Source: an uncultured Algibacter sp.
Lineage (GTDB): Bacteria; Bacteroidota; Bacteroidia; Flavobacteriales; Flavobacteriaceae
DNA length: 64,000 bases
Direction of reading: 5' to 3'
Assembly: GCF_947495675.1 (NCBI RefSeq)
Contig: NZ_CANLZX010000007.1
Coordinates: 23,224-87,223, forward strand
A program made the translations under genes and the position numbers. This document shows, piece by piece, positions 22,025 through 40,939 of the stretch (position 1 is the stretch's first letter; each line of letters begins with the position of its first letter). The notes under the pieces were generated by a model. It was not told the DNA's origin, ran no database searches, and worked only from the letters and a program-made list of their open reading frames with translations.

Positions 22025-25000
22025 TTACTTCTTTTTAGCAATAACAACATACATTCTAGCGTCTTCTGGAGCATCTCCATCACTATTTCCAGCCATAACT
22101 ACACTCTCTCCTGCTTTAACGTCACGCTTAAATAATGACATTTTAACTTCTCCTATAATGAAATCATCCCCTGTATCAACATAATCTTCAATTAAAAACT
22201 CTGGACGAGACACTCTATCATCATGTCCTACATAAAGTGTCATATCTTCTCCTGCTATAAATTGTAACAGGTCTCTTGCCCAATAACGACTATCTGAATT
22301 AGGTACTCTTACATATTCTGAACCATGTAAATAGCTTGGAATCTTTGTATAGTTATATTGTAAGTCAGTATATGGTTTCTTTCCCCAAAACACATTTGTT
22401 CTTAACATTGCTTGAGAGTCTCCTGTATAACTAAATTTAGTAAACAATTTACTCTTATTAGTAACACCTGGCACATAAGGAGGAATAAATGGTGTGTAAG
22501 CTGTTTTAGGTTCTTCTTTTACTACTGTCTTATAAAGTTGAGGCATTTTAGTACTTAAACCACCTTCTAAATTTACCGGTTTAGAATTTAAAGTAATGGT
22601 AGCATCTTTCAACCCTTGTCTTTTTGCTGTAATTTTAACTTCACCTGCTTTTAATAATGATTTAATTGCCACTCTATTTATACCGCATTCTGTATCTAGA
22701 TATAGGTTATTAATTGTGTTTTCTTTACCACTATTATAACCACCTCTCCATATACCTGCCCCTGATATAGTAAAATCTATACGTCCTTTATCTAATGGAC
22801 ATCTGTTACCTTCTTTATCAACAACTTCAACATCGATTAAAGCAATATCTGATCCATCTGCTAACCATCCATCGGCACCAGTTATAGATGTTAATTTAAT
22901 AGCTACAGGCTCTCCTGTAGTATGTTTAATTTGTGTTGCAGAAAGTTCATTATCAATATAAGCTTCTGCTCTTATTTCACCAGGTTTCCATTGTACATTA
23001 TCAAATTTATAAACATACCCATTATCTGGAATAGTATCAGTACCTATCAACTCATTATTTACAAATAATTTAACTGCTGCTGTATTGGATATAACATATA
23101 ATGGCTTGGTTGTATCTTCGGTATAATTCCAATGTCCAATTATATGAACTTGTGGTTCTGGTCGCCACATAGATTTTAAAGCATAAAACCCTTCTTTAGG
23201 TAAGCGAACAGCATCAACTTCTCCACTTGCTCTGGTAACTTCTGTAGGACATCTACCACCATGAGGTCCATCAGAAAAAATCCAATTTGCACCACCACTA
23301 TGGTAAGGCTTTTTACCCATTTTTTTCCACCAATGGTCTGCTTGTCTTACAGCAAATTCTTCTGACGTTAATTTATAGGTATTTCTGCTTAAATTTGGGT
23401 GACTGAAAAAGTTATCATCTGGTGAATATTTATCCCATGATCTACGTGGTGCTTCATCTCGACAATATTCACTTTCAATAATTGGTAGGTTAGGATATTC
23501 ACCTTCCCATCCTTCAGTTCCAATTTCAATACTAATGTATTTTTCTGACCAAGGTGCATTATCTGCACGTCTGTGTCCCATTAATCGTTTTCCTTTAGGA
23601 TCGAAAGTATCAATAACATCTAATATTTCCTGATAATGTGCTTCCGACTCAGCCCAGTTACCGCCTTCCCATATAAAAATAGATGGATGGTTACGGTAGT
23701 AAACAATCATATCTCTAAAAGCAGCAATACGTATATCCCAAGTTTCTCCTTCATCTTCAGATTCTCCTGCAACGCCAGGCATTAAGGTTACAAAACCATA
23801 TTTATCTCCCATGGCTATTTCAGCTGGAGATCCTGCGCAATGTCCCCAACGTATAAAATTACCTCCTGCTTCATCCATTAAATCATAGGTAAAATCTCTT
23901 AACCAGTCTGGTAAAGCAGCACCAAGTCCTGCCCAACTATTGGTTGGTTTTTGTCCCCATCCATGCAACTTTACATATTCCTTATTAATATGAAAACCAG
24001 AGTCTTTATTAAATTCAAAACTTCTTATTCCCAGAGGTGTTTCGTAACTATCTAATACAACATCATTTTGTTTAACCACGGTATAAACTTTATACATATA
24101 GGGGTTACGAGTGTACCAAAGTTGTGGGTTATCAATATTTAATTGTGTTTCAAATGTAAATTTTTCATTTGCTTTTATATCTTGAGAATTTGTTCCTTTT
24201 TGAACAATATTACCTTCTTTATTAATAATATAAGTTTCAAGAACCACATTTTTTTGTTCTTGATATTCATTATAAACTTCAGATTTTACAGTAACAGTTG
24301 CTTTATCGTTAGTAATGTTATCTGCATATGCATACGTACCAACTGTTTTTAAATTATCGTACAAAGGTAAAGTTACGTGTAAGGGATCCATAACATGTAA
24401 AAATACATTTCTATAAATTCCTCCATGTGTTGGGTGCCAATGTTCATGATTCCATACTAAAGGAAAATTATCTCTAAAATGATCGCCTCTGTCGTTATTA
24501 ACTTTTACGGCTATTACGTTTTCTTCTCCAAAATTAATGTGAGAAGTTAAATCAAATCCGAAAGGGATAAACCCTGTTTGGTTTTGACCAATATGCTTAC
24601 CATTAATATAAACATCGGCAATTTGTCGTACCGATTCAAATTCGATAAATATTTTTTTTCCTTTTTCTGATTCTGGAAGCGTGAAATTTTTTCTATACCA
24701 AACTGTACCTCGCCATTGATTATCTTCTCCATCGTGATGACCATGACTTAAATCATCAAAAGTATCAACATCATTAAAAGTATGCGGACAACTTATTGTG
24801 ACCCAGGATTTATCATCAAATTCTTTTGATTGAGCATGATCTGGATTCTCTTTTATAAATTTCCAATCAAGATTAAAATTATATTTAAACCTATTACCCT
24901 TAGATAAGTCTTTTTCATGATCTTGAGAGCTACAACCACTTAAAAACAAAGTAGTTAAACAAAAAAACAGACAAACTATACTTTTAAAACGCTTTTTCAT
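22025..25000 (-). CDS. GH2 family glycoside hydrolase with extended C-terminal domains (lipoprotein)
   Basis: 991 aa with lipobox LSGC. NFNLDWKFIKE...WVTISCPHTFND...WRGTVWYRKNF is the GH2 sugar-binding domain. YRNHPSIFIWEGGNW marks the TIM-barrel region. Ig-like repeats and a further ~150-aa unassigned tail follow. Confidence 0.85.
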   Translation of the reverse strand: MKKRFKSIVCLFFCLTTLFLSGCSSQDHEKDLSKGNRFKYNFNLDWKFIKENPDHAQSKEFDDKSWVTISCPHTFNDVDTFDDLSHGHHDGEDNQWRGTVWYRKNFTLPESEKGKKIFIEFESVRQIADVYINGKHIGQNQTGFIPFGFDLTSHINFGEENVIAVKVNNDRGDHFRDNFPLVWNHEHWHPTHGGIYRNVFLHVMDPLHVTLPLYDNLKTVGTYAYADNITNDKATVTVKSEVYNEYQEQKNVVLETYIINKEGNIVQKGTNSQDIKANEKFTFETQLNIDNPQLWYTRNPYMYKVYTVVKQNDVVLDSYETPLGIRSFEFNKDSGFHINKEYVKLHGWGQKPTNSWAGLGAALPDWLRDFTYDLMDEAGGNFIRWGHCAGSPAEIAMGDKYGFVTLMPGVAGESEDEGETWDIRIAAFRDMIVYYRNHPSIFIWEGGNWAESEAHYQEILDVIDTFDPKGKRLMGHRRADNAPWSEKYISIEIGTEGWEGEYPNLPIIESEYCRDEAPRRSWDKYSPDDNFFSHPNLSRNTYKLTSEEFAVRQADHWWKKMGKKPYHSGGANWIFSDGPHGGRCPTEVTRASGEVDAVRLPKEGFYALKSMWRPEPQVHIIGHWNYTEDTTKPLYVISNTAAVKLFVNNELIGTDTIPDNGYVYKFDNVQWKPGEIRAEAYIDNELSATQIKHTTGEPVAIKLTSITGADGWLADGSDIALIDVEVVDKEGNRCPLDKGRIDFTISGAGIWRGGYNSGKENTINNLYLDTECGINRVAIKSLLKAGEVKITAKRQGLKDATITLNSKPVNLEGGLSTKMPQLYKTVVKEEPKTAYTPFIPPYVPGVTNKSKLFTKFSYTGDSQAMLRTNVFWGKKPYTDLQYNYTKIPSYLHGSEYVRVPNSDSRYWARDLLQFIAGEDMTLYVGHDDRVSRPEFLIEDYVDTGDDFIIGEVKMSLFKRDVKAGESVVMAGNSDGDAPEDARMYVVIAKKK

Positions 25001-25023
25001 AAATTAAATAATGAGAAGTTACT

Positions 25024-27201
25024 TTAATTTTTAGCTGTTAAGATTATGGTTTTTAAGTCTTTTTCCATAGATGATGCCCCAACTGATATTGTAAATGTTC
25101 CTGGCTCCACCACTTTTTTCATATCTTGGTTTAACACATTAAGCTCATTAAAACCTAATTTAAAGGTTACTGTTTTTGTTTCACCTGGTTTTAAGGAAAT
25201 ACGCTCAAATCCTTTTAACATTTTAAGGTAACGTCCTACTGAAGCATAATCGTCTCTAACGTACATTTGTACTACCTCATCTCCTTGTCTATCCCCAGTA
25301 TTGGTAACTTCTATTGAAACTGTGGTTTCTCCATCTGTATTTATAGTATTACTTTCTAATTTAGGTTCTCCATATTTAAAAGTCGTATAACTTAATCCAT
25401 AACCAAATGGAAATAAGGGTGACTTATCAGTAAATCGGTACTTTCCTTTTCCAGATCCAATAAAATCAGGACGCTCAAGATAAGTTACAGGAACTTGCCC
25501 AACGGAGCGTGGAAAAGACATGGTTAGTTTACCTCCTGGATTTACGTCTCCAAAAATAACGTTAGCAACAGCATTACCTGCTCTCATACCACCATACCAA
25601 GTTTCAAGTACTGATGGTATGTTTTCGGCTATATAGTTGATACTTAATGGGCGTCCATTAATTAAAACCACAATAACTGGTTTTCCTGTTTTATGAATCG
25701 CCTCTACCAATTCATTTTGAACACCATACAAATCAAGATCAGAACGATCTCCACCTTCACCACATGTTTTATGAGAGCTACCTACTACTAGAACAACAGC
25801 ATCTGATTTTTTAGCGGCAGAAATAGCCTCAGGAAATCCTTCTTTTGAAAAACTATCAATATCACAACCTTTAGCGTAATTTATTTTTACATTATCTCCT
25901 ACTTTTTTCTTTAAACCATCAAGAACTGAAACATAATATGGTGGTAACCCTGAATAGCCACCCAATAGTTTATAGGTTTTCTTTTTAGGTCTCTCTTCAT
26001 GAGCGTTAGGGCCAATAACTGCTAAAGATTTTATTTTAGATAAATCTAGTGGTAAAAGATTATTATCATTTTTTAGCATAATCATAGATTTTTCTGCCAT
26101 TTCCAAAGCAAACTCACGATGTTCATCAGTACCAGCTTCTACAGTTTTCTCATCAATCTCTTTTGGTTTTGAATCAAATAAGCCTAATTTATATTTTGCT
26201 GTTAGAATACGTGATGTGGCTTTGTCTATATACTTCATCAATGAAGGATCCTGCTTTATTGTATCCTTCAATACATTGATATGATAGGTTGACAAATCAA
26301 CATTCTTACCAATTACCAAGTCCATATCAACACCCGCTTTTAATCCTAAAATAGCCGATTTAGCTCTGGTTTCAGGAATAAAATGCATAGTCTGTAATCT
26401 CCCAACATCATTATTATCAGAAACAATAAAACCATCAAAACCTAGCTCGTCTCGTAAAATATCCTTTAACAACCAAGTATTCATATGACAAGGAACTCCG
26501 TTAAAATCTTGATGCCCTGGCATAACGGAACCTACCTTTGCTTCCTTTACTGCTGCCTCAAACGATGGCAGATAAACCTCACGCAAACGACGTTCGGACA
26601 TATCACTAAATCCACCATTTATACCACGACGATTTTCAGGATATCCAACAAAATGCTTAGCTGTGGCGATAACATGATTTTCATCAAATTGCTCATCGCC
26701 TGTACCTTGTAAGCCCTCGATAAACGCAACACCCATTCGTGAAACTAAATAAGGGTCTTCACCATAAGATTCTTCAACACGACCATATCGTGCATCTCCT
26801 GAATAAACATCTAAATTGGGAGAATAACAATGAGTAACACCTAAAGCACGAGCTTCTAACGCTGTTTGTGAAGCCATTTTTTTGATTAACTCAGGTTCCC
26901 AGGTTGAAGCACAGGCCACCGCTTGTGGATAAACCGTTGTATTACCATAATAATCAAGAACAAGCCATAATCCATGTAATGCTTCCCCATACTTCATAAC
27001 AGGAATGCCCAATCTTTCATTGGCAGGTGCATCCTGAATCATTTCTGTCATCTTCTCTTCTAAGGTCATTTGACTAATTAAATTTTCAACTTTTGAGGCA
27101 ATTTCAGAATCTTTCTGAGACGTCGTTTTATTCGCTTTACTTTCTGAGTTGCAATTCAATAATAAGACTGTAAAAAATCCAAGAACAAATAATTTCTTCA
27201 T
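25024..27201 (-). CDS. GH3 beta-glucosidase/beta-xylosidase-like
   Basis: 725 aa. KHFVGYP is present, and GFDGFIVSDNND carries the nucleophile Asp in the SD motif. A C-terminal FnIII-like domain reads VQMYVRD...LKGFERISLKPGETKTV. Confidence 0.9.
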   Translation of the reverse strand: MKKLFVLGFFTVLLLNCNSESKANKTTSQKDSEIASKVENLISQMTLEEKMTEMIQDAPANERLGIPVMKYGEALHGLWLVLDYYGNTTVYPQAVACASTWEPELIKKMASQTALEARALGVTHCYSPNLDVYSGDARYGRVEESYGEDPYLVSRMGVAFIEGLQGTGDEQFDENHVIATAKHFVGYPENRRGINGGFSDMSERRLREVYLPSFEAAVKEAKVGSVMPGHQDFNGVPCHMNTWLLKDILRDELGFDGFIVSDNNDVGRLQTMHFIPETRAKSAILGLKAGVDMDLVIGKNVDLSTYHINVLKDTIKQDPSLMKYIDKATSRILTAKYKLGLFDSKPKEIDEKTVEAGTDEHREFALEMAEKSMIMLKNDNNLLPLDLSKIKSLAVIGPNAHEERPKKKTYKLLGGYSGLPPYYVSVLDGLKKKVGDNVKINYAKGCDIDSFSKEGFPEAISAAKKSDAVVLVVGSSHKTCGEGGDRSDLDLYGVQNELVEAIHKTGKPVIVVLINGRPLSINYIAENIPSVLETWYGGMRAGNAVANVIFGDVNPGGKLTMSFPRSVGQVPVTYLERPDFIGSGKGKYRFTDKSPLFPFGYGLSYTTFKYGEPKLESNTINTDGETTVSIEVTNTGDRQGDEVVQMYVRDDYASVGRYLKMLKGFERISLKPGETKTVTFKLGFNELNVLNQDMKKVVEPGTFTISVGASSMEKDLKTIILTAKN

Positions 27202-27232
27202 AAACTCTTTTTTAATAATTACTTTATTTTAA

Positions 27233-28633
27233 TTAATCAAAATTCCTTATTCCAGGAACAATTTTTATATCCAATATCCCTTCGGTTTTTGGCCATTTTA
27301 ATACTATTAATTTTTGACTTTTGGAATCCCAAATAAAATCTGTCGGATCAATTTCATTAGACAATTTATAAATTTCAAGTCCAACATTTTTTAAAGGATT
27401 ATAATATAAGACTGACTCTTGACCTATAAATATTGAAAAACCATCAGGATAATGTCTATTAGCACCAATAAATATTTTTGATGCACCTTTGCTATTATCT
27501 GGTTTTATTTTAACATCTAAACTTCTAGTTGCATGATTAAATAAAAAGGATTGAATATCTCCTGCAATAGATTGAGGAAAAGGTCTAGAAATCACATCTG
27601 TAATATACTTTCTTTCTACTGTACCTGCATCTGTTTTATCACTAAATATCGACCAAGTTGAAGGGCCACCTGGAAGAAAATTTTGCATGGTTCTATTTCC
27701 TAAAAACCAAGCTTTTATAGAACCTACACCCATCTTATCGAAAACTTCGGCAGTTCGGATATAAAGCTCTCTGTATTTTAATTGCCCTAGCTTGCCCTCT
27801 ATTATAGTATCGGTTGTTGCAAATGTTGGAAACCCCCATTCTCCAATTAAAATTGGAGCTTTTAACATATCTGATTCCTTATCAAATCGATCCATATTAC
27901 GCTTTATAAAGCTTATATCATTTTGGTATATATGCGGTGCAAAAATGATATTTTTTCTATTAATTGGCTTTGTAATTTCTGAGTATTGATTATTATCTAT
28001 TTTCTCTCCTTTATTCATAAAAATAGACTGAAATAATATCATTTTATCTTCATTTATTTTTTGACTTTCATCAATTATTTTTTGATATAAAGGAATAAGG
28101 TATTTGTTTGTTAAATTTTCATAAGAAATATCCATGGTTAACTTTCTTGGTTCATTAACCACATCGTATCCTAACACAGAAGATGCATTGGAATATCGGT
28201 TCCAAATTACTTTCCATGCATCTATATAAGTTTTATATTCATTCTTTTTATTTTGCCAGAATTCTTCCCAGACAAACTTATCTACACCATAAACTGTCAT
28301 TTTAAAAACCGTTTTTATACCATGGTATTTACCTAAAGCCACTAAAGAATCTAATTTAACCAAATAATCTGGCTCAAGCTTACCACCTGGAAAATTACTA
28401 AGTTTACCTAACTCCAACCGAATAACTTGGGTGTTAGCTCCCATTCGCACCATACGTACGTAGTCGTCGCTATTAAAAAACACTTCACCTTTATGGTCGT
28501 TGGTGTTTACTACAAAACCTCTGGGTATAATATGTTTTCCCATATCATCTCTAAGGCCATGTTTTATTTGTGAAAACGTGTGAAGTGAGCTTAAAAAACA
28601 AAAAAACAGAATGCATCTAACTTTTACGGACAT
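27233..28633 (-). CDS. Clan GH-A (GH5-like) glycoside hydrolase with a C-terminal beta-sandwich
   Basis: 466 aa. LGYDVVNEPR carries the NEP acid/base motif, FAPHIYQ the H-x-Y motif, and ILIGEWGFP the nucleophile Glu. It is the first gene after an operator-like element. Confidence 0.6.
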   Translation of the reverse strand: MSVKVRCILFFCFLSSLHTFSQIKHGLRDDMGKHIIPRGFVVNTNDHKGEVFFNSDDYVRMVRMGANTQVIRLELGKLSNFPGGKLEPDYLVKLDSLVALGKYHGIKTVFKMTVYGVDKFVWEEFWQNKKNEYKTYIDAWKVIWNRYSNASSVLGYDVVNEPRKLTMDISYENLTNKYLIPLYQKIIDESQKINEDKMILFQSIFMNKGEKIDNNQYSEITKPINRKNIIFAPHIYQNDISFIKRNMDRFDKESDMLKAPILIGEWGFPTFATTDTIIEGKLGQLKYRELYIRTAEVFDKMGVGSIKAWFLGNRTMQNFLPGGPSTWSIFSDKTDAGTVERKYITDVISRPFPQSIAGDIQSFLFNHATRSLDVKIKPDNSKGASKIFIGANRHYPDGFSIFIGQESVLYYNPLKNVGLEIYKLSNEIDPTDFIWDSKSQKLIVLKWPKTEGILDIKIVPGIRNFD

Positions 28634-28698
28634 GAAAAAGGATTTATTATTACAATTTTATTACCAATCAAAGTTAAATTGAAGAATAAAATTTTGTA

Positions 28699-28713
28699 TC
28701 CTGTACAGTACTG
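28699..28713 (-). promoter_or_regulatory. Operator-like phased direct repeat (TCCTGtacagTACTG) upstream of the GH5-like/GH3/GH2 operon
   Basis: Half-sites lie at 28699..28703 and 28709..28713, 66 nt from start codon 28633 and downstream of the susD terminator. Confidence 0.55.
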
Positions 28714-28773
28714 CAAAATAAAATATTTAAAGAATTAGTATAAATTACACTATTTATTAGCGTTTTTAACAAC

Positions 28774-28808
28774 AAAAAGACCGAAAGAAAACTTCTTCCG
28801 GTCTTTTA
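28774..28808 (-). terminator. Rho-independent terminator after susD
   Basis: The stem GACCGAAAGAA (28779..28789) / TTCTTCCGGTC (28793..28803) is 11 bp with one mismatch and a 3-nt loop. On the minus strand it is followed by TTTTTG. Confidence 0.65.
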
Positions 28809-28841
28809 AACTAAACTAACTCAAAAAAATAAAACTAATAT

Positions 28842-30425
28842 TTATCTATACCCATTATTTGTTGGATCTGATTCCAATAAAGCTGGATTATTTTCTAATT
28901 CTTGTAAAGGAATAGGCAATAAAACATGATATGGTTTTATATTTACATTAGGCTCCCAGAAACGATATTCAAGATTCTGAACTACATCTAATAATATTCC
29001 CCATCTAATCAAGTCATATCTTCTAGTTGCTTCTCCGGCTAACTCCCATTTACGTTCATCGTAAATAGCTCTTCTAAACGATTCTTGATCTAGTCCTAAT
29101 ATAGCTTCAGCTTCTACTTGAGTAGCAAAAGCACGCTCTCTTACTTCTCTTATATATTCAAAAGCAGTGTTAGGGTTTCCTCCAGGGCGTTCGTTTTCGC
29201 ATTCAGCAGCCATTAAGGCAACATCAGCTAAACGGAATACCATTCTATTATCTGAGTGGTTAAAACGCGGTGAAGTTTCCAAATCTAAATTCCAAAATTT
29301 AGCCATGTAAGGAAATACTAAATCGAAACCTAAATAGTTATCTACAATATTAAGTTCTCTTCTTAAATCATTCATAGGAAATTTTTCCGCAAAATCTTTC
29401 GAAGCAACTTGTAAACCAGTTCCATTAAAGGCTTGTCCATTTGCAGCAAGCGCAGCTCCAAGAGCTCCTCTTTCATCGGTATTAAGGGGTTCATCTCTTA
29501 AACGCGGGTTAAACATACTTGGTCTCCAACTATTATTACCAGCAAATGAACGGCCAGGAAAAGCAGGATCAAATATACCTTCAATGTCCTTTGCAAAATC
29601 TAATGACCAAATAATCTCAGCATTATATTCATTTAACGGATCAAAAACATCATTATAGTTTGGTAAAATGGTATGAGGAGATCCATTTAAAATTTCATTA
29701 CACTTATCTAAACCAGCTTGCCAGTTTTTCTGCTTCATATAAATTTTAGCCATAATTGTAGCGGCTGCCCATTTTGAAGCTCTACCGCTTTGATCACCGG
29801 TATATGAATCTTGTAAATTATCTTGAGCAAACTGTAAATCTACTAAAGTACCTGCAATTATAGTTGCTTCATCTGTTCTTCCTAATGCACCTATTTCCTC
29901 TAGTGTAAGCACTTCTGTATAATATGGTGCCGCGCCCCAAAGATTAGTAATGTGCCAGTAACATAAACCTCTTAGAAATGTAGCTTCTGCAATAATATCT
30001 GTTCGAGCTGGTTCAAGTATGCCTTCATTCCCAGTTACTCTATCTATAATTACATTGGTATTTAATATGACTCTATAAAGATCCTTCCAAGTATCAGAAA
30101 CACTCATTTTTTGAACAGATACATCTGCCAAAGCTTCATTCATTGTATAATTACCAATAGGCTGTACAAAATTTGCAGCACGGTTAGGTTCAATGATATC
30201 GGCACCATTATCATAAAAATGATCAAGCCCTACTTGCCCGTATATAGAATTATTCTTTAAAATGGCATATGTACCATTAATAGCTTGTCTTGCATCACTT
30301 TCTGAAGCAAAAAAGGTTTCAGGAGAAACAAGTGCTCTTGGTTCTTCTTCTAAAAAACTCTCACAACTAAAACATGAGAATATCATAAAGACGTATAAAA
30401 TTATATTTTTTGTTTTCATAATCAT
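28842..30425 (-). CDS. SusD/RagB-family outer-membrane glycan-binding lipoprotein
   Basis: 527 aa with lipobox FSCFSC. Typical SusD features are present (AIATIMAKIYMKQKNW TPR-like helices; C-terminal RKWELAGEATRRYDLIRWG). It lies 7 nt downstream of susC. Confidence 0.9.
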   Translation of the reverse strand: MIMKTKNIILYVFMIFSCFSCESFLEEEPRALVSPETFFASESDARQAINGTYAILKNNSIYGQVGLDHFYDNGADIIEPNRAANFVQPIGNYTMNEALADVSVQKMSVSDTWKDLYRVILNTNVIIDRVTGNEGILEPARTDIIAEATFLRGLCYWHITNLWGAAPYYTEVLTLEEIGALGRTDEATIIAGTLVDLQFAQDNLQDSYTGDQSGRASKWAAATIMAKIYMKQKNWQAGLDKCNEILNGSPHTILPNYNDVFDPLNEYNAEIIWSLDFAKDIEGIFDPAFPGRSFAGNNSWRPSMFNPRLRDEPLNTDERGALGAALAANGQAFNGTGLQVASKDFAEKFPMNDLRRELNIVDNYLGFDLVFPYMAKFWNLDLETSPRFNHSDNRMVFRLADVALMAAECENERPGGNPNTAFEYIREVRERAFATQVEAEAILGLDQESFRRAIYDERKWELAGEATRRYDLIRWGILLDVVQNLEYRFWEPNVNIKPYHVLLPIPLQELENNPALLESDPTNNGYR

Positions 30426-30432
30426 TATTTTT

Positions 30433-33400
30433 TTAAAAAGTTACGTTTAAACCAAGTGTTATAACTCTTGGGTTAGGATATTGTGCACTAAGATATCCTT
30501 GTGCTATATTACTACGACCAAAACTACTTGCTTCTGGATCAATTAATCTCGTTTTAGAAAACAATAATAAATTCGTTCCTGAAAAATAAACGGTTGCATT
30601 GTTAATTCCGTCTAATCCCATTTTATCAACAGGGAAATTATATGCTAATCTCACGTTTTTTAGACGTATGTGCGATCCATCTTCAACATATTCCGAATTA
30701 CTTGGTGTGTTTGTAACAGAATCTGCACCTGCTCTAGGAATATTAGATGTTTCATTAACACCTTCTATCCAACGGTCACGTAAATCTCCAAACTTAACAC
30801 CTTCTCCACGGTTAAAATAATTATTCCTCATGTTTAGGTTGTAGACTTCATTGCCCGTAGTACCTTGAAAATAGAAAGAAAAATCCCAGTTCTTATATGA
30901 AAATGAGTTTTCAAATCCAAAAATTAAATCTGGTGTAGGATCTCCTAAAATCACGTTATCCTCAGTTGAAATAATACCATCCGGAACACCATCAGGACCG
31001 CTAATATCGTCAAATCTAGACCCACCAACAACTTGAGCAGTTAAACCAGAAGCATCAATCTCAGCTTGACTTTTCCATGTCCCTAAGTATCTAACTCCTG
31101 TGTAAACAGGAACTGATTCTCCAACAATTAAACGTGTATTACCAGACCCAATAATAGGATCTACTACAATATCAATAAAATCTACACCACCAAGGTCTAA
31201 AATTTTGTTTCTGTTTGCAGATAATGTTACCGTAGAATTCCAATTAAAATTAGAGGTTCTAACATTTGTAGAGTTTACAAGAAATTCCCATCCTTTATTT
31301 TCTAAAGATCCAACATTTTGTAATTGACTATTAAAACCTGTTTGTCTTGGAATAGTTACATCTAATAATAAATCTTCTGTTTTCTTGTAGTAATAATTAA
31401 ATTCTGTAAAAACTCTACCACCAAACAAAGATGCTTCTAGAGCGATATCGAACGAACTTGTAGTCTCCCACATTAAATTGGGATTTGAAGGCCTACCAAG
31501 AGTCAAACCGGGCACTTCTTTACCATTAAGTGTTGTATTTGCTTCAGTTAATTCTCCAAAAGTTCTATATGGCTCAATAGCTTGATTACCTGATTTACCC
31601 CAACTAGCTCTTAATTTTAAATCTTGAAACACATTTTGATCTTGCATAAAATCTTCTTCAGATATTTTCCAAGCTCCTGCTATTGAAGGGAAAAACGCAT
31701 ATTTATTACCTGGTGCAAAACGAGAACTACCATCTGTTCTTCCTACTAAAGTTAAAAGGTATTTATCTTTATAGCTATAATTTAATCTTCCGAAAAAAGA
31801 TGCTATTTGAAATGCACTATAATCACTAGAAACCGCTGCCCTAACTGGATCTGAAAAACCTAAGTTATCAAAACCTACTGCATCACTTGTAATTCCTGCA
31901 GCCTCTGATAAAGCTATTTCAGTAGCTACTTTTTGAAAAGAAGCACCTGCAAGTGCGGTAATACTATGATTTTCTCCAAAATCTGATTGATATTGTATAG
32001 TATTTTCATTATTCCATCCTGTACTAGCAACTGTTCTCACACTCGCTGTACCTCCATCGGGTACGTTATCTGCGAGAAAACCTGGCAATTGACTAGATGT
32101 AAATCTATTTTGCTTAGTATTGTTAAATTCTGGACTAAATGTAGAACGAATAGTCCACTTTGGAGCTGGACTATACTCTAAATAAACTGTTGCTAATAAA
32201 TTATTAGTAAACGTTTCATTAGTATTCAATGCTATAGCAGCTAAAGGGTTATTAAAAGGAGCTCCTGCAACCTCATCTCGTCCATTAAAGGTTCCATCGT
32301 CATTAAAAGCAGGCTGTGTACGAAGTATACCAAAAGCTGCCTGACTAAAACTACCCAGCGCGTTATCTTGTTCTAGTCTAGAATAATTTAATCTAAATCC
32401 TGTTTTTACTTTATCGTTAATTTTAAGATCTAAATTTGTTCTGAAAATATATTTTTCAATACCAGAACTCCTAACGATACCTTCTTGATTAAAATAATTA
32501 AACGATGTGTAATAATTAACATTATCTGATGCTCCAGAAACAGAAATATCTGCATTATAAATTGGAGCAGTTCCTAATACTAAATCAACCCAATCGTTGT
32601 CAGGATATGAAGATGGATCACCTGGAAATGGCTCTGCAGCAGACCTAAAACGAGCACTTTCGTTTGTAAACTCTATTTGCTCCCTTTGAGAAAGTCTATC
32701 TGGTAATTCTGGTAACATTTGTGAACTTGTATATAGATTTAGACTAATCTGTGGTTTTCCAGTTCCAGCTCCTACACCATTTTTTGTAGTTACTAAAACT
32801 ACCCCATTTGCACCTCTAGAACCATAAATGGCAATAGAAGAAGCATCTTTTAAAACCTCGATAGATTTAATATCGTTACTATTAATGTTGTTTAAGTTGA
32901 AATTTGTACCAACCACAATACCATCAATAACCCAAAGCGGCTCATTACTTCCCGTAATGGAGTTACCTCCTCTTACTCTAATAACAGTACCAGCACCTGG
33001 CGCACCACTAGTTTGTGTTACTTGAACACCGGCAGCTCTTCCTTGTAAAGCTTGATCTACTCTGGCAACTGGTACAGCCGTTAAATCTTCTGAACTTACA
33101 GATGATACCGATCCTGTTAAATCTGATTTTCGTTGCGTACCGTAACCAATAACAACGACTTAATCTAGCTTATTGTCTTGCTCTAAAGATACATTGATTT
33201 GAGTTTGATTACCTACAAGTATTTCTTTTGTTGAGTAACCAATGTAAGAAATAACAAGTGTACTTAGTGCATCTGCCTTAATAGTAAACTCTCCATCAAA
33301 ATCAGTAGTTGTACCTTGTGATGTCCCTTTAATTAATACTGTTGCTCCTGGTAGTGGTTGACCGTCTGCAGTAACTGTACCTTTTACAGACTGCGCATTA

Positions 33401-33489
33401 GACATTGCCATACAAGAAAATGCCAAAATAACACACATCCAGGTTTTCCGAAAACTCGAACGAATACTTAATTTAGTTTTTAAATTCAT
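30433..33489 (-). pseudogene. SusC-like TonB-dependent transporter interrupted by one in-frame TAA (33160..33162)
   Basis: ORFs 33160..33489 (signal peptide plus CarboxypepD_reg-like domain, ending ...LEQDNKLD*) and 30433..32916 are in the same frame. I translated the stretch between them and found no further stop: VVVIGYGTQRKSDLTGSVSSVSSEDLTAVPVARVDQALQGRAAGVQVTQTSGAPGAGTVIRVRGGNSITGSNEPLWVIDGIVVGTNF (plug domain). The stop replaces the Glu of the conserved LDEVVV(I/V)GYGT junction. The total length of 1018 codons is a normal SusC length. Confidence 0.8.
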
Positions 33490-33548
33490 AAAATTTTAGT
33501 TTGATTGTTAATAGATTCCTAAAATATTATGAATTTTTTTATCAACTG

Positions 33549-33613
33549 TCCTGTTGCATCCCTTACTATCCTGCACTACCCTGTGCTATTCTGTACTATT
33601 CTGTACTATCCAA
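33549..33613 (-). promoter_or_regulatory. Array of ~7 helically phased copies of the 10-bp unit (T[CT]CTG+TACTA) upstream of susC
   Basis: The plus strand reads TCCTGttgca TCCCTtacta TCCTGcacta CCCTGtgcta TTCTGtacta TTCTGtacta TCCaa, every half-site exactly 10 bp from the next. The array ends 60 nt from the susC ATG (33489) and begins 13 bp after terminator 33626..33662. Confidence 0.65.
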
Positions 33614-33625
33614 TAATAGGTTGTT

Positions 33626-33662
33626 AAAAAAAAATCTCAGACTACATAGTAATCTGAGATTT
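33626..33662 (-). terminator. Rho-independent terminator after the GH39-like gene 33695..35383
   Basis: The 10-bp perfect stem AAATCTCAGA (33632..33641) / TCTGAGATTT (33653..33662) is extendable by 3 further pairs. On the minus strand the stem is followed by a run of T, from the 9-A run at 33626..33634 on the plus strand. Confidence 0.8.
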
Positions 33663-33694
33663 CACAACTAAAAGAATGGTTATTTACTCTTTAT

Positions 33695-35383
33695 TTATTG
33701 AGGAATTAATTCAATTAATTTAACACTATGTGGTTCTAAATCCACTTGTAAGGTAAGCTTACCATCTATTTTTTTTACAATAGAATCTGTGATTGTTAAT
33801 GGCAATTTAGCCAACTGTGTATATTTGGTTAAGTTGGAATTTAACACGTTATCCCATCCATCTCCAAAACGATCTGAAGGTCTGTTTCCATAAATACGGC
33901 CGTTCGTATTTTCAACGATACCAGCTGCTCTTAAATCTTTATAAAGTTCGTGCATCATGATACCATGGTTTTTATCTATAGTCCACTCTTTCATTTTCCA
34001 GCTTGTACCGCCGGAAATTTGCCCACCATCTAATTGAGGGTAAAGCGTTCTGTTTGAAGTGCTTGTACGGCTTGTATTATGATTATAAACCATTAAGTAG
34101 ATAATATCACCTTTTATAACAGGTATTACACCTGCATGGCCACTAAGATTATCAATAGTTTCTAATCTACTACCTCCTTCCATCTTCAAAAACATTTCGG
34201 TTACATTCCGTCTACCTTGAGGTAAATTACTAGATTCTATTTCTTGTCCCCAATCATAAATTTCAGTAATTCTATTCTCATAAGCCAAGTCTGCAATTCT
34301 TGCATACCAACTTGCTCCTAATTCTGTTGCGTCTGTTAAACTAAGCCCACGAACCCTATTTTCGTCACGCAATATCCCAAATTCTTGAATATCAAAAGGT
34401 ATATTACTAAACTGTGGGTAACTATTTAATTTAGCTCTGTACGCATCTACAGTTTCAGGAAACTTAACTGTGTTTTCGTCAATTTTCTCGTAGTATGAAA
34501 TACAGAAAAAATCCATTTTTGTCCCTACTTCTCCTGTTGCATAATTGGTACCATTGGCACAATGATCAATAATCTCTGTAGTGAAAGTAGCAACGCCTTC
34601 GGTTAAATTATTTCCTGGGCCAATAATAGCATCCGGAATAACTTTTAAAACCTCATCTACTGTAATATCGTAATGTTTAAAAAACTCATCTTTAGTGCCA
34701 TTCCAATGTTGGGGCGAATAGTTTGGCTCTGTAGCTACTCGAAAGCGCCATGTTTTAACTTCATTCATACCAAACTCATTAACAAGTGTTTGCATAAATG
34801 CATTTATGTATTGTCTCCAAATATCATAATCATCTGGCGGGTTTGTATTCCCATAGGTATTTACCTCTTTTACCGCATTCATTTCCCATGGCACATTATC
34901 TAATACAATTCTAGGTTTAAAACCGGTTAACATAAAATTGCGCATATCATTTAACAAATCACTAAAATCTGTTATGATATTTCCCGAACCATCCACACCT
35001 TTGTAAAAGTCATTTTTGTTATCCGTTCTACCACCCAAAACACGAACCAAATTATAACTTTTAACATACGGCTTAATATTTTCTATATTGGTCCTAAAAC
35101 CAGAACTACTAAAACGCGTTTGATTTATCATTGGTCTTGTTGACCAGAAATTATATAATTGCCCTACAACTGCGCCAGTATTAATACTAACTAAATTATC
35201 GGGATCTACAACAATTACAGGCTGTTCTGGCTCTTCTGGTTCTTCTGGTTCTTCAGGATCTGGATTTTCAATAACCGGTTCGGTTAAATCTTCTGACTTT
35301 GAACATGTAAAAAATATGGTGAATAATGAGAGAAATAGAAGAATAGATAATCTTCTAAAGGAATATAACATTTTCATAAGCAA
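33695..35383 (-). CDS. Clan GH-A, GH39-like glycoside hydrolase (lipoprotein with a Pro/Glu-rich linker)
   Basis: 562 aa. The PEEPEEPEEPEQP linker follows the lipobox. WRFRVATEPNYSPQHW resembles the GH39 W-x-F-E-x-WNEP acid/base region. DIQEFGI is a candidate nucleophile. The gene is monocistronic, between an operator-like element and a strong terminator. Confidence 0.5.
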   Translation of the reverse strand: MLMKMLYSFRRLSILLFLSLFTIFFTCSKSEDLTEPVIENPDPEEPEEPEEPEQPVIVVDPDNLVSINTGAVVGQLYNFWSTRPMINQTRFSSSGFRTNIENIKPYVKSYNLVRVLGGRTDNKNDFYKGVDGSGNIITDFSDLLNDMRNFMLTGFKPRIVLDNVPWEMNAVKEVNTYGNTNPPDDYDIWRQYINAFMQTLVNEFGMNEVKTWRFRVATEPNYSPQHWNGTKDEFFKHYDITVDEVLKVIPDAIIGPGNNLTEGVATFTTEIIDHCANGTNYATGEVGTKMDFFCISYYEKIDENTVKFPETVDAYRAKLNSYPQFSNIPFDIQEFGILRDENRVRGLSLTDATELGASWYARIADLAYENRITEIYDWGQEIESSNLPQGRRNVTEMFLKMEGGSRLETIDNLSGHAGVIPVIKGDIIYLMVYNHNTSRTSTSNRTLYPQLDGGQISGGTSWKMKEWTIDKNHGIMMHELYKDLRAAGIVENTNGRIYGNRPSDRFGDGWDNVLNSNLTKYTQLAKLPLTITDSIVKKIDGKLTLQVDLEPHSVKLIELIPQ

Positions 35384-35425
35384 TTTGTTTACTTCAAAAA
35401 TAAATAAAAACCAACTAACAAACCA

Positions 35426-35455
35426 TCCTGTACTGTACTGTACTGTACTGTAATG
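35426..35455 (-). promoter_or_regulatory. Operator-like element merged with a pentanucleotide microsatellite (TCCTG TACTG TACTG TACTG TACTG TAATG) upstream of the GH39-like gene
   Basis: It carries the same TCCTG/TACTG words as the other sites, 43 nt from start codon 35383. Confidence 0.55.
35428..35452. repeat. Perfect (CTGTA)5 pentanucleotide microsatellite
   Basis: Five uninterrupted CTGTA units were counted base by base at 35428..35452. Confidence 0.95.
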
Positions 35456-35547
35456 CTATTATAAATAGAATTAATAAATTTTTGAAAGTTAAATACCTAT
35501 GTTAGATAAAAAAACATCTTGAGTTAACAACATATTGTATATTTAAA

Positions 35548-36321
35548 CTACAAAGACTTCAATCTAATATTTTTAAAAGACACAGTCATTGGTGGACCAA
35601 CATGCACTTGAACGCCAACGAATCCTTTTAAACTTCTATTTGTAGTATCTAAATCGATTACTTCACTCATTAAAACACCGTTTACATAATGCTGCATTAG
35701 ACTATCTACAACAATTAAATGCATGTCATTCCAGTCATTTTCTTTTACATTCGACTTTAGAGTTTTAGTATCCCCTAAAGAAGCCACAACATCTCTAGTT
35801 TGCCAACAATTCTTTTTAACGTTTTCTTTAATGTTTTTAATAGAAATGCTATCTGGCAAAGCATTAATTACCACTTTCTCTCCAATATATGCTAAAGTGG
35901 TTCGCTTTTTTTCTTCGTAATTTTGACCAGTATATTTATTTTTTCCATCAATATCACATTGGTAACCTTTTAAAGCAAAGGGGAAACCATCAATAACTTG
36001 ACTTCTATAATTAACACCACTATTACCCGATTTGGAAATTTTGTACTGTAATTTTAATTCAAAATTTTCAGGTTGTTCTTTATTATAAATTATAAAAGTA
36101 TTTCTTTTTAAAATAGTCTCTGGAGTTACTTCACCAACCAAAATACCGTCTTTAACCTTCCAATAAGCAGTATCACCCTTCCAACCTTCTAAATTTTCAC
36201 CATTAAAAATAGATCTGAATCTTGATGCCTCTTTATTAGCTTGGTTATTCACATTATACTTACATGAAAAACACGTAATTAGAAATAGTAAACATATCGT
36301 TTTAATAATATTTAAAATCAT
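35548..36321 (-). CDS. DUF1080 (3-keto-disaccharide hydrolase-like, concanavalin-type) lipoprotein
   Basis: 257 aa. FNGENLEGWKGDTAYWKVKDGILVGE...SGNSGVNYRSQ...GYQCDIDG...VQVHVGPPMTVSFKNIRLK matches the DUF1080 pattern. Confidence 0.75.
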   Translation of the reverse strand: MILNIIKTICLLFLITCFSCKYNVNNQANKEASRFRSIFNGENLEGWKGDTAYWKVKDGILVGEVTPETILKRNTFIIYNKEQPENFELKLQYKISKSGNSGVNYRSQVIDGFPFALKGYQCDIDGKNKYTGQNYEEKKRTTLAYIGEKVVINALPDSISIKNIKENVKKNCWQTRDVVASLGDTKTLKSNVKENDWNDMHLIVVDSLMQHYVNGVLMSEVIDLDTTNRSLKGFVGVQVHVGPPMTVSFKNIRLKSL

Positions 36322-36331
36322 TTTATTAATA

Positions 36332-37927
36332 TTAATCTAATGTTATCTTACTCTTCCACCAATTTTCATTTGGTTGAAAATCTTTTGATAGAACTTCTAA
36401 TCGTTGCTTTTCCAGGGCTGGTAATTTTTTATTTATGGTATTTAAATAACGATTTTGCGCTTTAACTTTACTGTATTCAACATCTTTAACGGGATATTTA
36501 GCACCTACTTTTTTTAACCAAGACAATAAATTATGGCTTAATTCTTTTGCTATTTCTGAATGTTGTGCAATCACATTTAAATTGTCATTTTCGTTTGAAG
36601 GTAACTTATACAACTCTTCACGACCATCTTCCCAATAGTGAATTAGTTTCCATCCATTTTGTTGAATTATAGAAGCTGGTTCGCCACCTTGATTACCGTA
36701 GTGAGGATAGTGCCAATACAATGGCCTATTTACAGCTAAAATCTTTCCTTCCAGTAATGGCTTAAGACTTATACCATCTATATGCTGTTTTGGTAGTAGT
36801 GGCACATTGGCAACATCAAGTAGTGTAGGATAAAAATCGGTATTAATTACGGGGAAATCTGTTGTAGTACCCGTTTTTTTTAACCATGGTATTTTTATAA
36901 AATAAGGTTCTCGAATACCACCTTCCCATTGATAGCCTTTTCCGCCTCTTAACGGCAGGTTACTTGTTGCATAATGATCGCCTGAGGCTACACCTCCGTT
37001 ATCGGAAGTAAAAACTACAATGGTATTTTCTTCTAATCCGTTATCTTTTAATGCTTTTAAAACAATACCAACAGCATCGTCCATGGTTTCTACTAACCCT
37101 GCATAAACTGGATTGTCTTGAACTTTACGAATTGGTAAAACACGTTCCATACTGTAACCAGTATTTGCTATACCTATTGAATCGGCTTTATCGCGGTATT
37201 TTGCCCATTTAGGTTCTGTAGTTTGTATAGGTGCATGTACTGCATAAAAGGATAAGAAAGCAAAAAATGTGGTGTCTTTATGTTTTGAAATAAAATTGGC
37301 TGTTTCATTGGCTAAACGTAATGTTAAATTTTCTCCTTTTTGCTTATTGGGCAATTTAGGGTTATTCCATGGTGAGAAGAAACCGCCTCTAGGCGAACCC
37401 GCATCTATACCTGCAATATTAATATCGAAACCATGATTTTCGGGGTATGCTCCTTCACCGCCTAAATGCCATTTTCCAGCAAAAAAGGTTTTGTATCCGT
37501 TATTTTTAAAAGCTTCAGCAATAGTAATATCTTCTTGCGGTAATGCATGAACATAATCTGCTGGTAATAACTTATCATAACGATTTCTTTTACGCCAATC
37601 TTCTCCTGTTTTGGCACCAATCCAATCGGTAATACCATGACGAGCAGTAAACTTTCCTGTCATGATGCTGGCTCGTGATGGACTACAAACTCTACTAGCT
37701 GCATAGCCTTGAGTAAACATCATCCCTTCGTTTGCCAATTTATCTACATTTGGTGTTTCGTAAAATGTACTACCTGTAACACCTAAATCATGATACCCTA
37801 AATCGTCAACTAAAATGAATAAAATATTCGGTTTTTGATGTTGCTTTATAATTTCTGATGCTTTGAATTTACATCCAAAAAAAAAGAAAATACTAATACC
37901 AAAAAACAGCTTATTTAGTATATGCAT
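36332..37927 (-). CDS. S1 sulfatase (arylsulfatase A-like)
   Basis: 531 aa. PNILFILVDDLGYHDLG...SRVCSPSRASIMTGKFTARHG gives a C-x-P-x-R motif. SDNGG and KGYQWEGGIREP are also present. Confidence 0.9.
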   Translation of the reverse strand: MHILNKLFFGISIFFFFGCKFKASEIIKQHQKPNILFILVDDLGYHDLGVTGSTFYETPNVDKLANEGMMFTQGYAASRVCSPSRASIMTGKFTARHGITDWIGAKTGEDWRKRNRYDKLLPADYVHALPQEDITIAEAFKNNGYKTFFAGKWHLGGEGAYPENHGFDINIAGIDAGSPRGGFFSPWNNPKLPNKQKGENLTLRLANETANFISKHKDTTFFAFLSFYAVHAPIQTTEPKWAKYRDKADSIGIANTGYSMERVLPIRKVQDNPVYAGLVETMDDAVGIVLKALKDNGLEENTIVVFTSDNGGVASGDHYATSNLPLRGGKGYQWEGGIREPYFIKIPWLKKTGTTTDFPVINTDFYPTLLDVANVPLLPKQHIDGISLKPLLEGKILAVNRPLYWHYPHYGNQGGEPASIIQQNGWKLIHYWEDGREELYKLPSNENDNLNVIAQHSEIAKELSHNLLSWLKKVGAKYPVKDVEYSKVKAQNRYLNTINKKLPALEKQRLEVLSKDFQPNENWWKSKITLD

Positions 37928-37939
37928 GAATTTTAAACT

Positions 37940-39736
37940 TTATTTAGCTGCTTTTGGCCCATCATAATCATAGGTAAACCAATCAACATCTATATAACCT
38001 GTATCTGCTTTTTCATTCCAAGAGAAAAACCCTAATCTATCGCCTGTCCATTTTCCAAATGCAATAGTAAATGTTGGTCCAAAACGTGTATAATTTTTAC
38101 CATCGATACTATATTCATAAGTGGCTTGGTTTATATTATTTGAGGTTCTTACATATAAGTTGTTACCTGTTATATCTGGCCCTTTTGTTTTTTTAGACAT
38201 TGGATCCATATAAAACAGACTCTTTTTACCATTTTCATCTACTTCAACACCCAACAAATTAAAGACACCTCCATATCTTACAAATCCTGCTAATTGATGT
38301 GGTTTCATGCCTGAAACATCAAACTTTGCTACAGCAGTACCTGTTGTAATTCCCATAATTCGTTGACTTAATGTGTTACAAGCTCTCCAGAAATCTGAAT
38401 CTGAACCATCATTGTTTGTCCACTCGTTTATATTTGGTCCATAACCTTTTTCGTTTGGTAATATTTTGCTTGCTTTAAGGCGTAGCCACCCTGGGCGCTC
38501 GGTTAAAGACCAATGTGAGTTTCTTGGATTATGGTTCCATTCCCATTGAAAACCTAATTTTGAAGAAGAAAAATCATCATCTGAACTTGGAGCAGAGATT
38601 GGATAACCATCTATAGGTTTTTTATATTGTTTTACAGGTTCGCCAATACCATCATTATCTTCGTCTACACCAATTATTGGCCAACCATCAACCCATGTAA
38701 CAGGTGCTAAACATTGTGGTCGACCTTGAAAAGGAATATCATCATTTTGTATTAACTGATGCATATACCACCACGATTTATCTGGTGCTTGCATTAAACC
38801 TCCTTGACTACAACTACGATTATTAAATGCTGTTCCTTTTTCTAGAACAGTTTTTACTTCATAAGGTCCATATATACTTTCTTTAGAGCGTAATACAATT
38901 TGCTTCCTATCATTTTTAGGGTTTTTAACACCTGGTTTTGTAGAAGTATCACCCATAGTCCATTGTGCTAAAAAGATATACCAAGTGCCCTCTATTTTAT
39001 AGATTTTTGCAGCTTCGGCTCCCATTCCTGTGTAGGCTAATTTACCTTCATCTAAGATTTTTGTACCATCCCAACTCATTTCGTAAATTCTATTCTCATT
39101 ACCTTCAATGGTGTTTTCTGGTCCTTTTTGCTTTCCTGCTGTATTAATTATTACGTAAGCTTTATGTGCTTCTTCATCCCAAAAAACTCCTGGATCGTCT
39201 AATACTTTTGCTTTTGGAAGCATCATGATGGGCTTACTCCATGGACCTTTAATATCTTTAGCTGTGGCCACCATTAAACCATGTTGATAGTCTATTTGGT
39301 AACAATACCAAGTCCCTTCATGATAAGCCAAATCGCCTGCCCATGTACCAAAAGAATAGCCATTCATGCGATCCCAATTATATTCTGGAGCCCATGATAA
39401 ACTTTCAAACACATGGCCAACATTTGTCCAGTTTACCATATCCTTAGATTCTAGAATAGGCATACCAGGTGACATATGTTGTTTAGATGTAATCATGTAA
39501 TATGTATCGCCAACTTGCTCGATATCAGAATCTGGATAATCGGCATTTAAAATAGGGTTGATGTATGTGCCATCGCCTTGATCGCCAAAACTCCCTATTT
39601 TAGCTTCAACTTGAGCTATATCCTTAGATTTTAATATTTCATTTTCTGAATTCTCTGTATTTTTTTTACAGCTTAATACGCTTAAAACAGAAACTAAAAC
39701 AAATGCTTTAAAAACACTTACATGTTGTATATTCAT
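37940..39736 (-). CDS. GH43 family glycoside hydrolase with a C-terminal concanavalin-like domain
   Basis: 598 aa. YINPILNADYPDSDIEQVGDTYYMITS...ILESKDMVNWTNVGHV is the propeller N-terminus. The C-terminal beta-sandwich reads FQWEWNHNPRNSHWSL...GWLRL. Confidence 0.85.
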   Translation of the reverse strand: MNIQHVSVFKAFVLVSVLSVLSCKKNTENSENEILKSKDIAQVEAKIGSFGDQGDGTYINPILNADYPDSDIEQVGDTYYMITSKQHMSPGMPILESKDMVNWTNVGHVFESLSWAPEYNWDRMNGYSFGTWAGDLAYHEGTWYCYQIDYQHGLMVATAKDIKGPWSKPIMMLPKAKVLDDPGVFWDEEAHKAYVIINTAGKQKGPENTIEGNENRIYEMSWDGTKILDEGKLAYTGMGAEAAKIYKIEGTWYIFLAQWTMGDTSTKPGVKNPKNDRKQIVLRSKESIYGPYEVKTVLEKGTAFNNRSCSQGGLMQAPDKSWWYMHQLIQNDDIPFQGRPQCLAPVTWVDGWPIIGVDEDNDGIGEPVKQYKKPIDGYPISAPSSDDDFSSSKLGFQWEWNHNPRNSHWSLTERPGWLRLKASKILPNEKGYGPNINEWTNNDGSDSDFWRACNTLSQRIMGITTGTAVAKFDVSGMKPHQLAGFVRYGGVFNLLGVEVDENGKKSLFYMDPMSKKTKGPDITGNNLYVRTSNNINQATYEYSIDGKNYTRFGPTFTIAFGKWTGDRLGFFSWNEKADTGYIDVDWFTYDYDGPKAAK

Positions 39737-39762
39737 TTAAAAATTTATTTAAAATGTTTCAA

Positions 39763-40710
39763 TTATAATTTAATAATCTTTTTTAACAATGTCGTTTTAC
39801 TATCTTTTGTGGATATAAAATAAATTCCACTAATTAAATCGTTAATATCAATAATTTGATTTCTGGATGTACTTGTATATTCACGAACGGTAGCACCATG
39901 TATATTAGATATAATAAGTTTGGAGTTAAGTGGTAAATTTTTAAAATTCACAATACCATTGGTTGGGTTTGGGTACACTTTAATTTCTTCTAAATTACTT
40001 TCAGAGCCTATTGATAATGAACCATTGTAGCATGAAGATTCGCTATTTGATAAATTGAAAGCAACACTATCAGAAATACCATTTAATCTTAACACCATTC
40101 TATCTAATAGACAATAAGAAGACCTTGCATCTAAAGTTATTTTATATATCCCAGGGTTGTTAAAAGTAACAAAGACTCTATGAGAATCGCCATCATTAGT
40201 ATTGGCAACAAATCTCCACTCCTGCGTATTTCCAAAAATTTTAAAAAAACCTAATTCTGATTTTCCTTCCGGGCAATCATTATTTGCATCGGTTTCACAA
40301 GCAGGTCTAGGGATAACTCTATGACCAGATTTTATACCATAATAATCATCGGCATCAATTTTTAACCAAGAATCGTTGTGCTCTCCATTAGATGTTCCCA
40401 TATTTATTTTCATGTGCCAAGCAAATCTATAGGTACCAGGAGTATTTATTTTAATATTATAAACAATTGGAGCATTTGATAAGTTGTTAAAAGATTGTGG
40501 ACCATCCCAGTATATATAACCACTACCTGTATAACCAGAAACACTATTATCTATTTTCCAGTTTGGGTGATTTATTATACCGGACTCCATTTCAATTGTT
40601 AAAAGTCCGTTTTGCTCTTCAAATGGTAATGTACCATCACAGGCTGCTGTTTGTGCAAACACACCCATTGATAATATTAAAAGAAAAAGAAATGTAATTC
40701 TATTTTTCAT
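39763..40710 (-). CDS. Secreted CBM-like beta-sandwich protein with a T9SS C-terminal sorting domain
   Basis: 315 aa. NGLLTIEMESG...GYIYWDGP...GTYRFAWHMK...LLDRMVLRL resembles the N-terminal module of 7715..9724. The CTD reads KVYPNPTNGIVNF...SGIYFISTKD. It is the first gene after an operator-like element. Confidence 0.6.
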   Translation of the reverse strand: MKNRITFLFLLILSMGVFAQTAACDGTLPFEEQNGLLTIEMESGIINHPNWKIDNSVSGYTGSGYIYWDGPQSFNNLSNAPIVYNIKINTPGTYRFAWHMKINMGTSNGEHNDSWLKIDADDYYGIKSGHRVIPRPACETDANNDCPEGKSELGFFKIFGNTQEWRFVANTNDGDSHRVFVTFNNPGIYKITLDARSSYCLLDRMVLRLNGISDSVAFNLSNSESSCYNGSLSIGSESNLEEIKVYPNPTNGIVNFKNLPLNSKLIISNIHGATVREYTSTSRNQIIDINDLISGIYFISTKDSKTTLLKKIIKL

Positions 40711-40789
40711 TTTTATTGTATTTTAATTTAAATTAGATATATATAATTACTTAACTTTTCAAATATAATCAAGCAATTCAGGTATATTG

Positions 40790-40804
40790 TCCTGAACTGT
40801 CATG
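40790..40804 (-). promoter_or_regulatory. Operator-like phased direct repeat (TCCTGaactgTCATG) upstream of the CBM-like T9SS gene operon
   Basis: Half-sites lie at 40790..40794 and 40800..40804, 80 nt from start codon 40710. Confidence 0.5.
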
Positions 40805-40893
40805 TATCATTTATAAAAACACCTAATAAAGTAAAAAACTAATTTATGTTATTTAACCAAAACAGTTTTCACTTCTTTTAAATATCTAAAAGA

Positions 40894-40930: not shown

Positions 40931-40939
40931 AAATTATAA

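Follow-up and report, generated by a model that had tools for sequence, protein, structure and literature searches.

Does the only SusC-type transporter gene of a large flavobacterial polysaccharide locus carry a true nonsense mutation, or does its internal stop codon exist only in the deposited sequence? The question is raised by a 64,000-nucleotide stretch of DNA from an uncultured Algibacter sp. (contig NZ_CANLZX010000007.1, positions 23,224 to 87,223), which we call the window and number from its first letter. In this predicted ulvan polysaccharide utilisation locus (PUL), a susC gene for a SusC/RagA TonB-dependent transporter is interrupted by one in-frame TAA. The original prediction had merged two separately listed open reading frames (ORFs) into one SusC-like gene and had left three explanations for the stop: a recent loss of function, a consensus error, or transport by another SusC outside the window. 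This is still the right list. We consider it probable that the stop is genuine, and that it represents an evolutionarily very recent nonsense null allele of the ulvan-locus susC, created by a G>T change at position 33162.

The two ORFs belong to a single 1018-codon gene, as had been proposed. Read in one frame from 33489 to 30433, the minus strand gives 1019 codons in which the only stops are codon 110 and the terminal one. The 81 codons that separate the TAA from the GTG of the 827-residue ORF (33159 to 32917) are open, as had been read before, and encode Plug domain sequence. Around the lesion the minus strand reads CAA GAC AAT AAG CTA GAT TAA GTC GTT GTT ATT GGT TAC GGT ACG CAA, which translates at the lesion as K-L-D-(stop)-V-V-V-I-G-Y-G-T-Q.

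The domain content of the two parts is complementary. The 109-residue N-terminal fragment matches CarbopepD_reg_2 / PF13715 (CarboxypepD_reg-like, E=1.4e-18), and the 908-codon C-terminal part contains the Plug domain (E=4e-20) and the SusC signature TIGR04057 (63.3 bits, cut-off 46.2; residues 96-126 of this part). Against TIGR04056 (OMP_RagA_SusC) the C-terminal part scores 753 bits (cut-off 368) over profile positions 81-981 of 981; positions 1-80 are supplied by the N-terminal fragment, that is, by the CarboxypepD_reg N-terminal extension (NTE). When Glu was restored at the stop, the resulting 1018-residue protein aligned at 100% coverage and 75-85% identity with hundreds of SusC proteins of 1012-1021 residues, and this end-to-end alignment shows that the two ORFs are not chance neighbours. 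The NTE, the Ton box (at the DNA level), the Plug domain and an adjacent susD are all present, and what is missing is an intact, exportable frame. The gene is a family member by descent and, as written, a pseudogene. In the source record the split appears as two coding sequences (CDS) of 109 and 905 amino acids, the latter with an ATT start, and no pseudogene flag is given.

The original codon can be read from related loci. We compared 80 orthologous loci (L001-L080) from species-representative genomes of Algibacter, Hyunsoonleella, Seonamhaeicola, Maribacter, Polaribacter, Zobellia and others. The 78 susC copies that lie clear of contig ends are uninterrupted ORFs of about 1008-1139 amino acids, and two further copies lose their N-terminus to a contig end. 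The codon aligned with the TAA specifies Glu in 80 of 80 orthologs (GAA in 57, GAG in 23), and the four closest relatives read GAT/GAC-GAA-GTN at the site. Starting from the GAA of these orthologs, one G>T change at the first codon position (C>A on the plus strand) is enough to give TAA. The alignment with orthologous genes that had been suggested as a check therefore returned intact frames and Glu throughout, in agreement with the earlier claims that the stop replaces a conserved Glu and that a single GAA-to-TAA transversion explains it. Orthologs are 64-88% identical to the window gene over the 908-residue C-terminal part. Its closest kin belong to Algibacter and Hyunsoonleella, with SusC identities of 85-88% and neighbouring genes up to 95% identical. 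The susC genes of these ulvan-type loci have a promoter motif in common with the window gene but differ from it in carrying a Glu codon where the window has TAA.

The Ton box reads DEVVVIG, and the lost Glu is its second residue. One of the two best solved relatives is Bt1763, the levan SusC of Bacteroides thetaiotaomicron (PDB 5t3r/6z8i), whose Ton box has been defined experimentally. It has the same layout of signal peptide, NTE (PF13715), Ton box DEVVV(T/I)G, plug and barrel, and its motif aligns residue for residue with that of the window susC. The Bt1763 Ton box (82-DEVVVTG-88) directly follows an NTE of ~9 kDa; its deletion or replacement by Ala throughout leaves the transporter non-functional, and the NTE is needed too (Gray et al., 2021, PMC7782687). 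In SusC itself, loss of the Ton box abolishes growth on starch (PMC10350073). The comparison has its limits. The Bt1763 mutants were engineered in-frame and are still located in the membrane, whereas the natural stop takes out everything past the NTE; Bt1763 handles levan and the window transporter would handle ulvan; and identity is modest (E=6.9e-115, two segments). By sequence the closest solved structure is 8aa4_A, a 'SusC homolog' (E=1.6e-149, residues 22-1018) with LDEVVVVGYGT at the site. This is an intact protein from a gut Bacteroides and serves as a structural reference only.

As written, translation ends at codon 110. The gene then yields only a secreted fragment of ~8 kDa (signal peptide and NTE), and its Ton box, plug and barrel are left without an export signal. 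The signal peptide is MNLKTKLSIRSSFRKTWMCVILAFSCMAMSNA/Q..., ending ...AMSNA/Q, with the cleavage site judged by eye from the sequence. The domain match of the N-terminal fragment thus bears out the earlier statement that the protein is truncated after the signal peptide and the CarboxypepD_reg domain.

It might be argued that the stop is bypassed, by an ochre suppressor tRNA, by programmed recoding or by re-initiation, so that a functional transporter is made after all. Two observations could be taken in favour of this. The context of the internal stop is TAA-G, which is absent from all 30 natural stops in the window and is the one weak hint of leakiness, and the source annotators placed a start shortly past the stop (33145..33153, with ATT at codon 4). 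The 905-residue protein read from that ATT (MGYGTQRKSD...) has no hydrophobic leader and lacks the D-E of the Ton box, and the first in-frame ATG lies more than 140 codons past the stop. A re-initiated product would therefore lack a signal peptide, as had been anticipated, and would be unable to reach the outer membrane. TAA is also the regular terminator here: it ends 26 of the 30 complete window genes (TAG ends 4) and is therefore not reassigned. A tRNA scan found no tRNA gene in the 64-kb window, and no Rfam family, and hence no recoding element, reached the gathering threshold there. None of the 80 orthologs has a stop at this codon, so nothing about it looks programmed. Evidence of reassignment or read-through was not found within the window, and a suppressor tRNA elsewhere in the genome is possible. 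Recoding or read-through is very unlikely, and a functional transporter obtained by any of these routes is barely conceivable.

A second question is how old the lesion would be. In the alignment with the 80 orthologs, the window susC has no private substitution at 246 invariant columns, and single orthologs have up to 10 changes at columns where all other sequences agree. Its one deviation among the 495 columns with at least 90% conservation is N541D, compared to an ortholog median of 8 such deviations and a 10th percentile of 3. It contains no indels, and its identity to relatives (84-88%) is on a par with that of the intact susD (83-85%). From one deviation in ~1,080 non-synonymous sites of conserved codons, neutral divergence since inactivation would be less than ~0.5%. 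Relative-rate tests of the Tajima type were outgroup-dependent and gave no consistent excess on the window branch; the gene tree is probably not clean, and these tests were not relied on.

The lack of decay in the rest of susC, together with the conserved promoter, susD and synteny, means that the lesion is either very young or a consensus error. To judge from these substitution patterns, normal purifying selection acted on susC until very recently, or does so still if the TAA is an error. That ulvan uptake was abandoned long ago and the gene is eroding is highly improbable: apart from the stop itself nothing speaks for it, and it is contradicted by the single lesion, the lack of indels, a count of conserved-column deviations lower than in about 90% of intact orthologs, the intact state of all neighbouring genes and the low bound on neutral divergence. 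A long-standing pseudogene was rejected on the conserved-column counts.

The more serious competitor is a consensus or sequencing error, in which case the strain would have GAA and an intact, functional susC, and the TAA would exist in the deposited contig only. Several points favour it and weigh against a genuine mutation. An error would leave just this picture of no decay at all: outside the stop, susC is perfectly conserved at invariant columns, and promoter, susD and synteny are intact. C>A / G>T changes are the signature of oxidative library-preparation damage, a known class of artefact. The sequence comes from a sole assembly. Exact look-ups of the two SusC fragments and four neighbouring proteins returned a single NCBI contig and no counterpart in Logan or ENA. 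Metagenomes scanned with a 35-nt pattern, its critical base left open, gave no match for either allele. One metagenome contig (L081), whose GH3 falls in the same 90%-identity cluster as the window GH3, ends before susC. An error at this one base is therefore possible. In addition, losing the sole transporter of a 64-kb locus under evident constraint would a priori be costly in nature.

Other evidence points to a real base. Neither a frameshift nor a stop is seen in the remaining 30 large ORFs of the 64 kb, at a coding density of 95.8%. This lack of any other lesion speaks against noise in the assembly, and assemblies free of indel lesions rarely contain consensus substitution errors. Random single-base changes in susC would create a stop in only ~4.7% of cases. 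Judged by typical PGAP pseudogene counts, real nonsense pseudogenes far outnumber nonsense-creating consensus errors in a genome. Taken together, we regard a consensus error as rather unlikely. The lesion otherwise resembles ordinary bacterial nonsense pseudogenes (those annotated as 'internal stop'), with one substitution, intact orthologs and no compensating features, and is particular only in striking the single transporter of a large intact PUL, and in doing so at the Ton box. A literature search on SusC with a premature stop returned mostly 'susceptibility' matches; an Elizabethkingia paper among them is silent on SusC nonsense alleles and was not used.

If the allele is genuine, as we favour, a single G>T would have turned the Ton box GAA into TAA and made the SusC/SusD importer of the locus null. 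The change may have arisen in the wild, not long before the strain was isolated, or in the laboratory, where passage on medium without ulvan would have made it neutral. The ulvan lyase, which carries a type IX secretion system (T9SS) tail, would still be secreted, and uptake of ulvan oligosaccharides via this locus would be lost unless another SusCD pair substitutes. Such a substitute is not present in the window: no Plug or TonB-receptor domain was found in the other ORFs (all 31 large ORFs were scanned, including two cut by the window ends), which supports the earlier statement that this is its only susC. A further possibility is that the stop is real and has been selected, with lyase secretion kept and 'selfish' SusCD uptake given up, for instance as an escape from a phage or toxin with this SusC as its receptor, and/or with the free periplasmic NTE being active, for example in titrating a TonB partner. 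We give this little credence. The features on which these considerations rest are collected in Table 1.

Table 1. Features of the susC lesion and its surroundings (window coordinates).
Feature	Position	Strand	Remarks
susC (SusC/RagA TonB-dependent transporter)	30433..33489	minus	1018 codons plus terminal stop, one interruption
In-frame TAA (codon 110)	33160..33162	minus	takes the place of the Ton box Glu
Listed ORF, N-terminal piece	33160..33489	minus	109 amino acids, ATG start
Listed ORF, C-terminal piece	30433..32916	minus	827 amino acids, GTG start
Ton box codons D-(stop)-V-V-V-I-G	33145..33165	minus	aligned with Bt1763 (5t3r_D) and 8aa4_A, LDEVVV(T/V)GYGT
Expected product, 109 amino acids	33163..33489	minus	signal peptide (~residues 1-32) and NTE (CarboxypepD_reg-like Ig domain, residues 34-105)
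Stranded C-terminal part	30436..33159	minus	908 codons: rest of Ton box, plug, SusC signature, 22-strand barrel
susD, intact	28842..30425	minus	Pfam SusD_RagB and SusD-like_3; start 7 nt past the susC stop
Terminator-like hairpin, 15 pairs and T run	33631..33663	minus	after the upstream GH39 gene; 5' boundary of the susCD unit
Terminator-like hairpin, 15 pairs and T run	28775..28807	minus	just past susD; 3' boundary of the susCD unit
Direct-repeat array, ~seven 10-bp units (GRATAGYRCA / CAGGAYAG)	33545..33611	minus	susC promoter region; TRF
Further CAGGAYRGT copies	15392, 35422, 46504, 48788	minus	looser copies in gaps 17970-18390, 28634-28841, 40711-40939
Ulvan lyase, T9SS tail	15519..17969	minus	'short ulvan lyase' / Uly1 type, 6byp E=2.7e-168

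The gene pair seems to stand on its own. With strong hairpins on both sides and a repeat region of its own upstream, susC-susD looks like a separate bicistronic unit, in which case susD alone would be exposed to polarity from the early stop. susD is translationally adjacent to susC and may suffer such polarity; it is 83-85% identical to orthologs in the same position. The upstream repeats belong to a motif that recurs along the window. CAGGAYRGT occurs eight times, always on the gene strand, against 0.72 expected, usually in the form of two 10-bp repeats (CAGGAYAG-N2-CAGGAYA). Six of the eight copies lie 40-90 nt upstream of the start codons of separate units, and the largest array is at susC. 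The CAGGA core is invariant upstream of susC in 8 orthologous regions, and the strict motif is found at most 250 nt upstream of susC in 39 of the 80 loci, often at about -65. Presumably the locus regulator, for which the window has no gene, uses the repeat as its operator. A sigma-70 promoter scan (23 hits, 20.8 expected) is uninformative for Bacteroidota.

A perfect (TACAG)x5 repeat on the minus strand (35428..35452) abuts the CAGGATGG motif upstream of the GH39 gene at 33695..35383. It is possibly a slippage-prone extension of the same operator.

The rest of the window gives the context of the lesion. We found 32 genes (31 large ORFs and a small one at 18074..18388), all on the minus strand. 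As far as is visible, the locus is otherwise intact, as had been stated, with ORFs of normal size, N-terminal signal sequences and no other split gene. In addition to the lyase, it encodes six rhamnosidases (GH78 x4, GH106 x2), nine sulfatases, four GH2 enzymes (two cut by the window ends), GH3, GH5, two GH39, two GH43, a 3-keto-disaccharide hydrolase and a sugar isomerase. The window genes include no regulator, no inner-membrane transporter and no second SusC/D pair. The joint presence of lyase, rhamnosidases, sulfatases and a SusC/D pair identifies the window, on gene content, as a predicted ulvan PUL. The order GH43-sulfatase-3-keto-disaccharide hydrolase-GH39-susC-susD-GH5-GH3-GH2-sulfatase recurs in Algibacter relatives, and the closest of 18 loci compared keep parts of it. 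The ulvan locus of Formosa agariphila KMM 3901, which Reisky and co-workers are said to have described in 2019, is reportedly a similar flavobacterial PUL, with an ulvan lyase, GH78/GH106-type rhamnosidases, GH2, GH3, GH39, GH43, many sulfatases, a rhamnose mutarotase and one SusC/D pair.

Four of the proteins encoded here, all on the minus strand, end in T9SS C-terminal sorting domains: the ulvan lyase (15519..17969), a GH39-like protein and two others (the remaining coordinates being 39763..40710, 43843..46470 and 46964..48724). These tails suggest that extracellular depolymerisation would persist with a null SusC.

Several other genes deserve mention. The small ORF at 18074..18388 (minus strand, 104 codons, MQRLAFKMKLNKGQKEAYTKRHNELWPEL...YME followed by a stop) lies inside a 421-bp gap (17970..18390) and looks like an L-rhamnose mutarotase; at the corresponding place on the related contig L081, ahead of the lyase, there is a rhaM gene (PF05336). 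An intact 571-residue protein with an odd N-terminus (18391..20106, minus) has no Pfam, NCBIfam or PDB match, and an intact 669-residue protein (7715..9724, minus) is without an NCBIfam match and hits Pfam only weakly, at GH115_C. Both are candidate ulvan-active enzymes of uncharacterised type.

Identity to relatives is mosaic along 22025..43801, as seen in comparison with four loci (L005, L017, L074 and L001). GH39 is 95% identical to that of Algibacter amylolyticus (L017), whose SusC is only 81% identical, and GH3, GH2 and one sulfatase are 92-94% identical to those of an uncultured Algibacter (L074). For the SusC N-terminal fragment, identity is 85% with A. agarivorans (L005) and 61-74% with the other close relatives. 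This pattern suggests recombination among these loci.

No new biology is involved in this lesion, as nonsense pseudogenes are a familiar class and both the architecture of SusC and the function of its Ton box are already known. It is an ordinary nonsense pseudogene, and its relevance is for phenotype prediction and annotation. In the public record the two CDS would be better joined into one gene with a pseudogene flag. If the base is real, inferring from the genome that a strain with an ulvan PUL also uses ulvan would give the wrong answer here, since the one SusC/D importer that the locus has is null. If confirmed, the allele would be a natural single-base knock-out for which a TAA>GAA repair provides the isogenic control, and this knock-out/repair pair could be used to study the role of SusCD in marine ulvan uptake as well as the free NTE domain.

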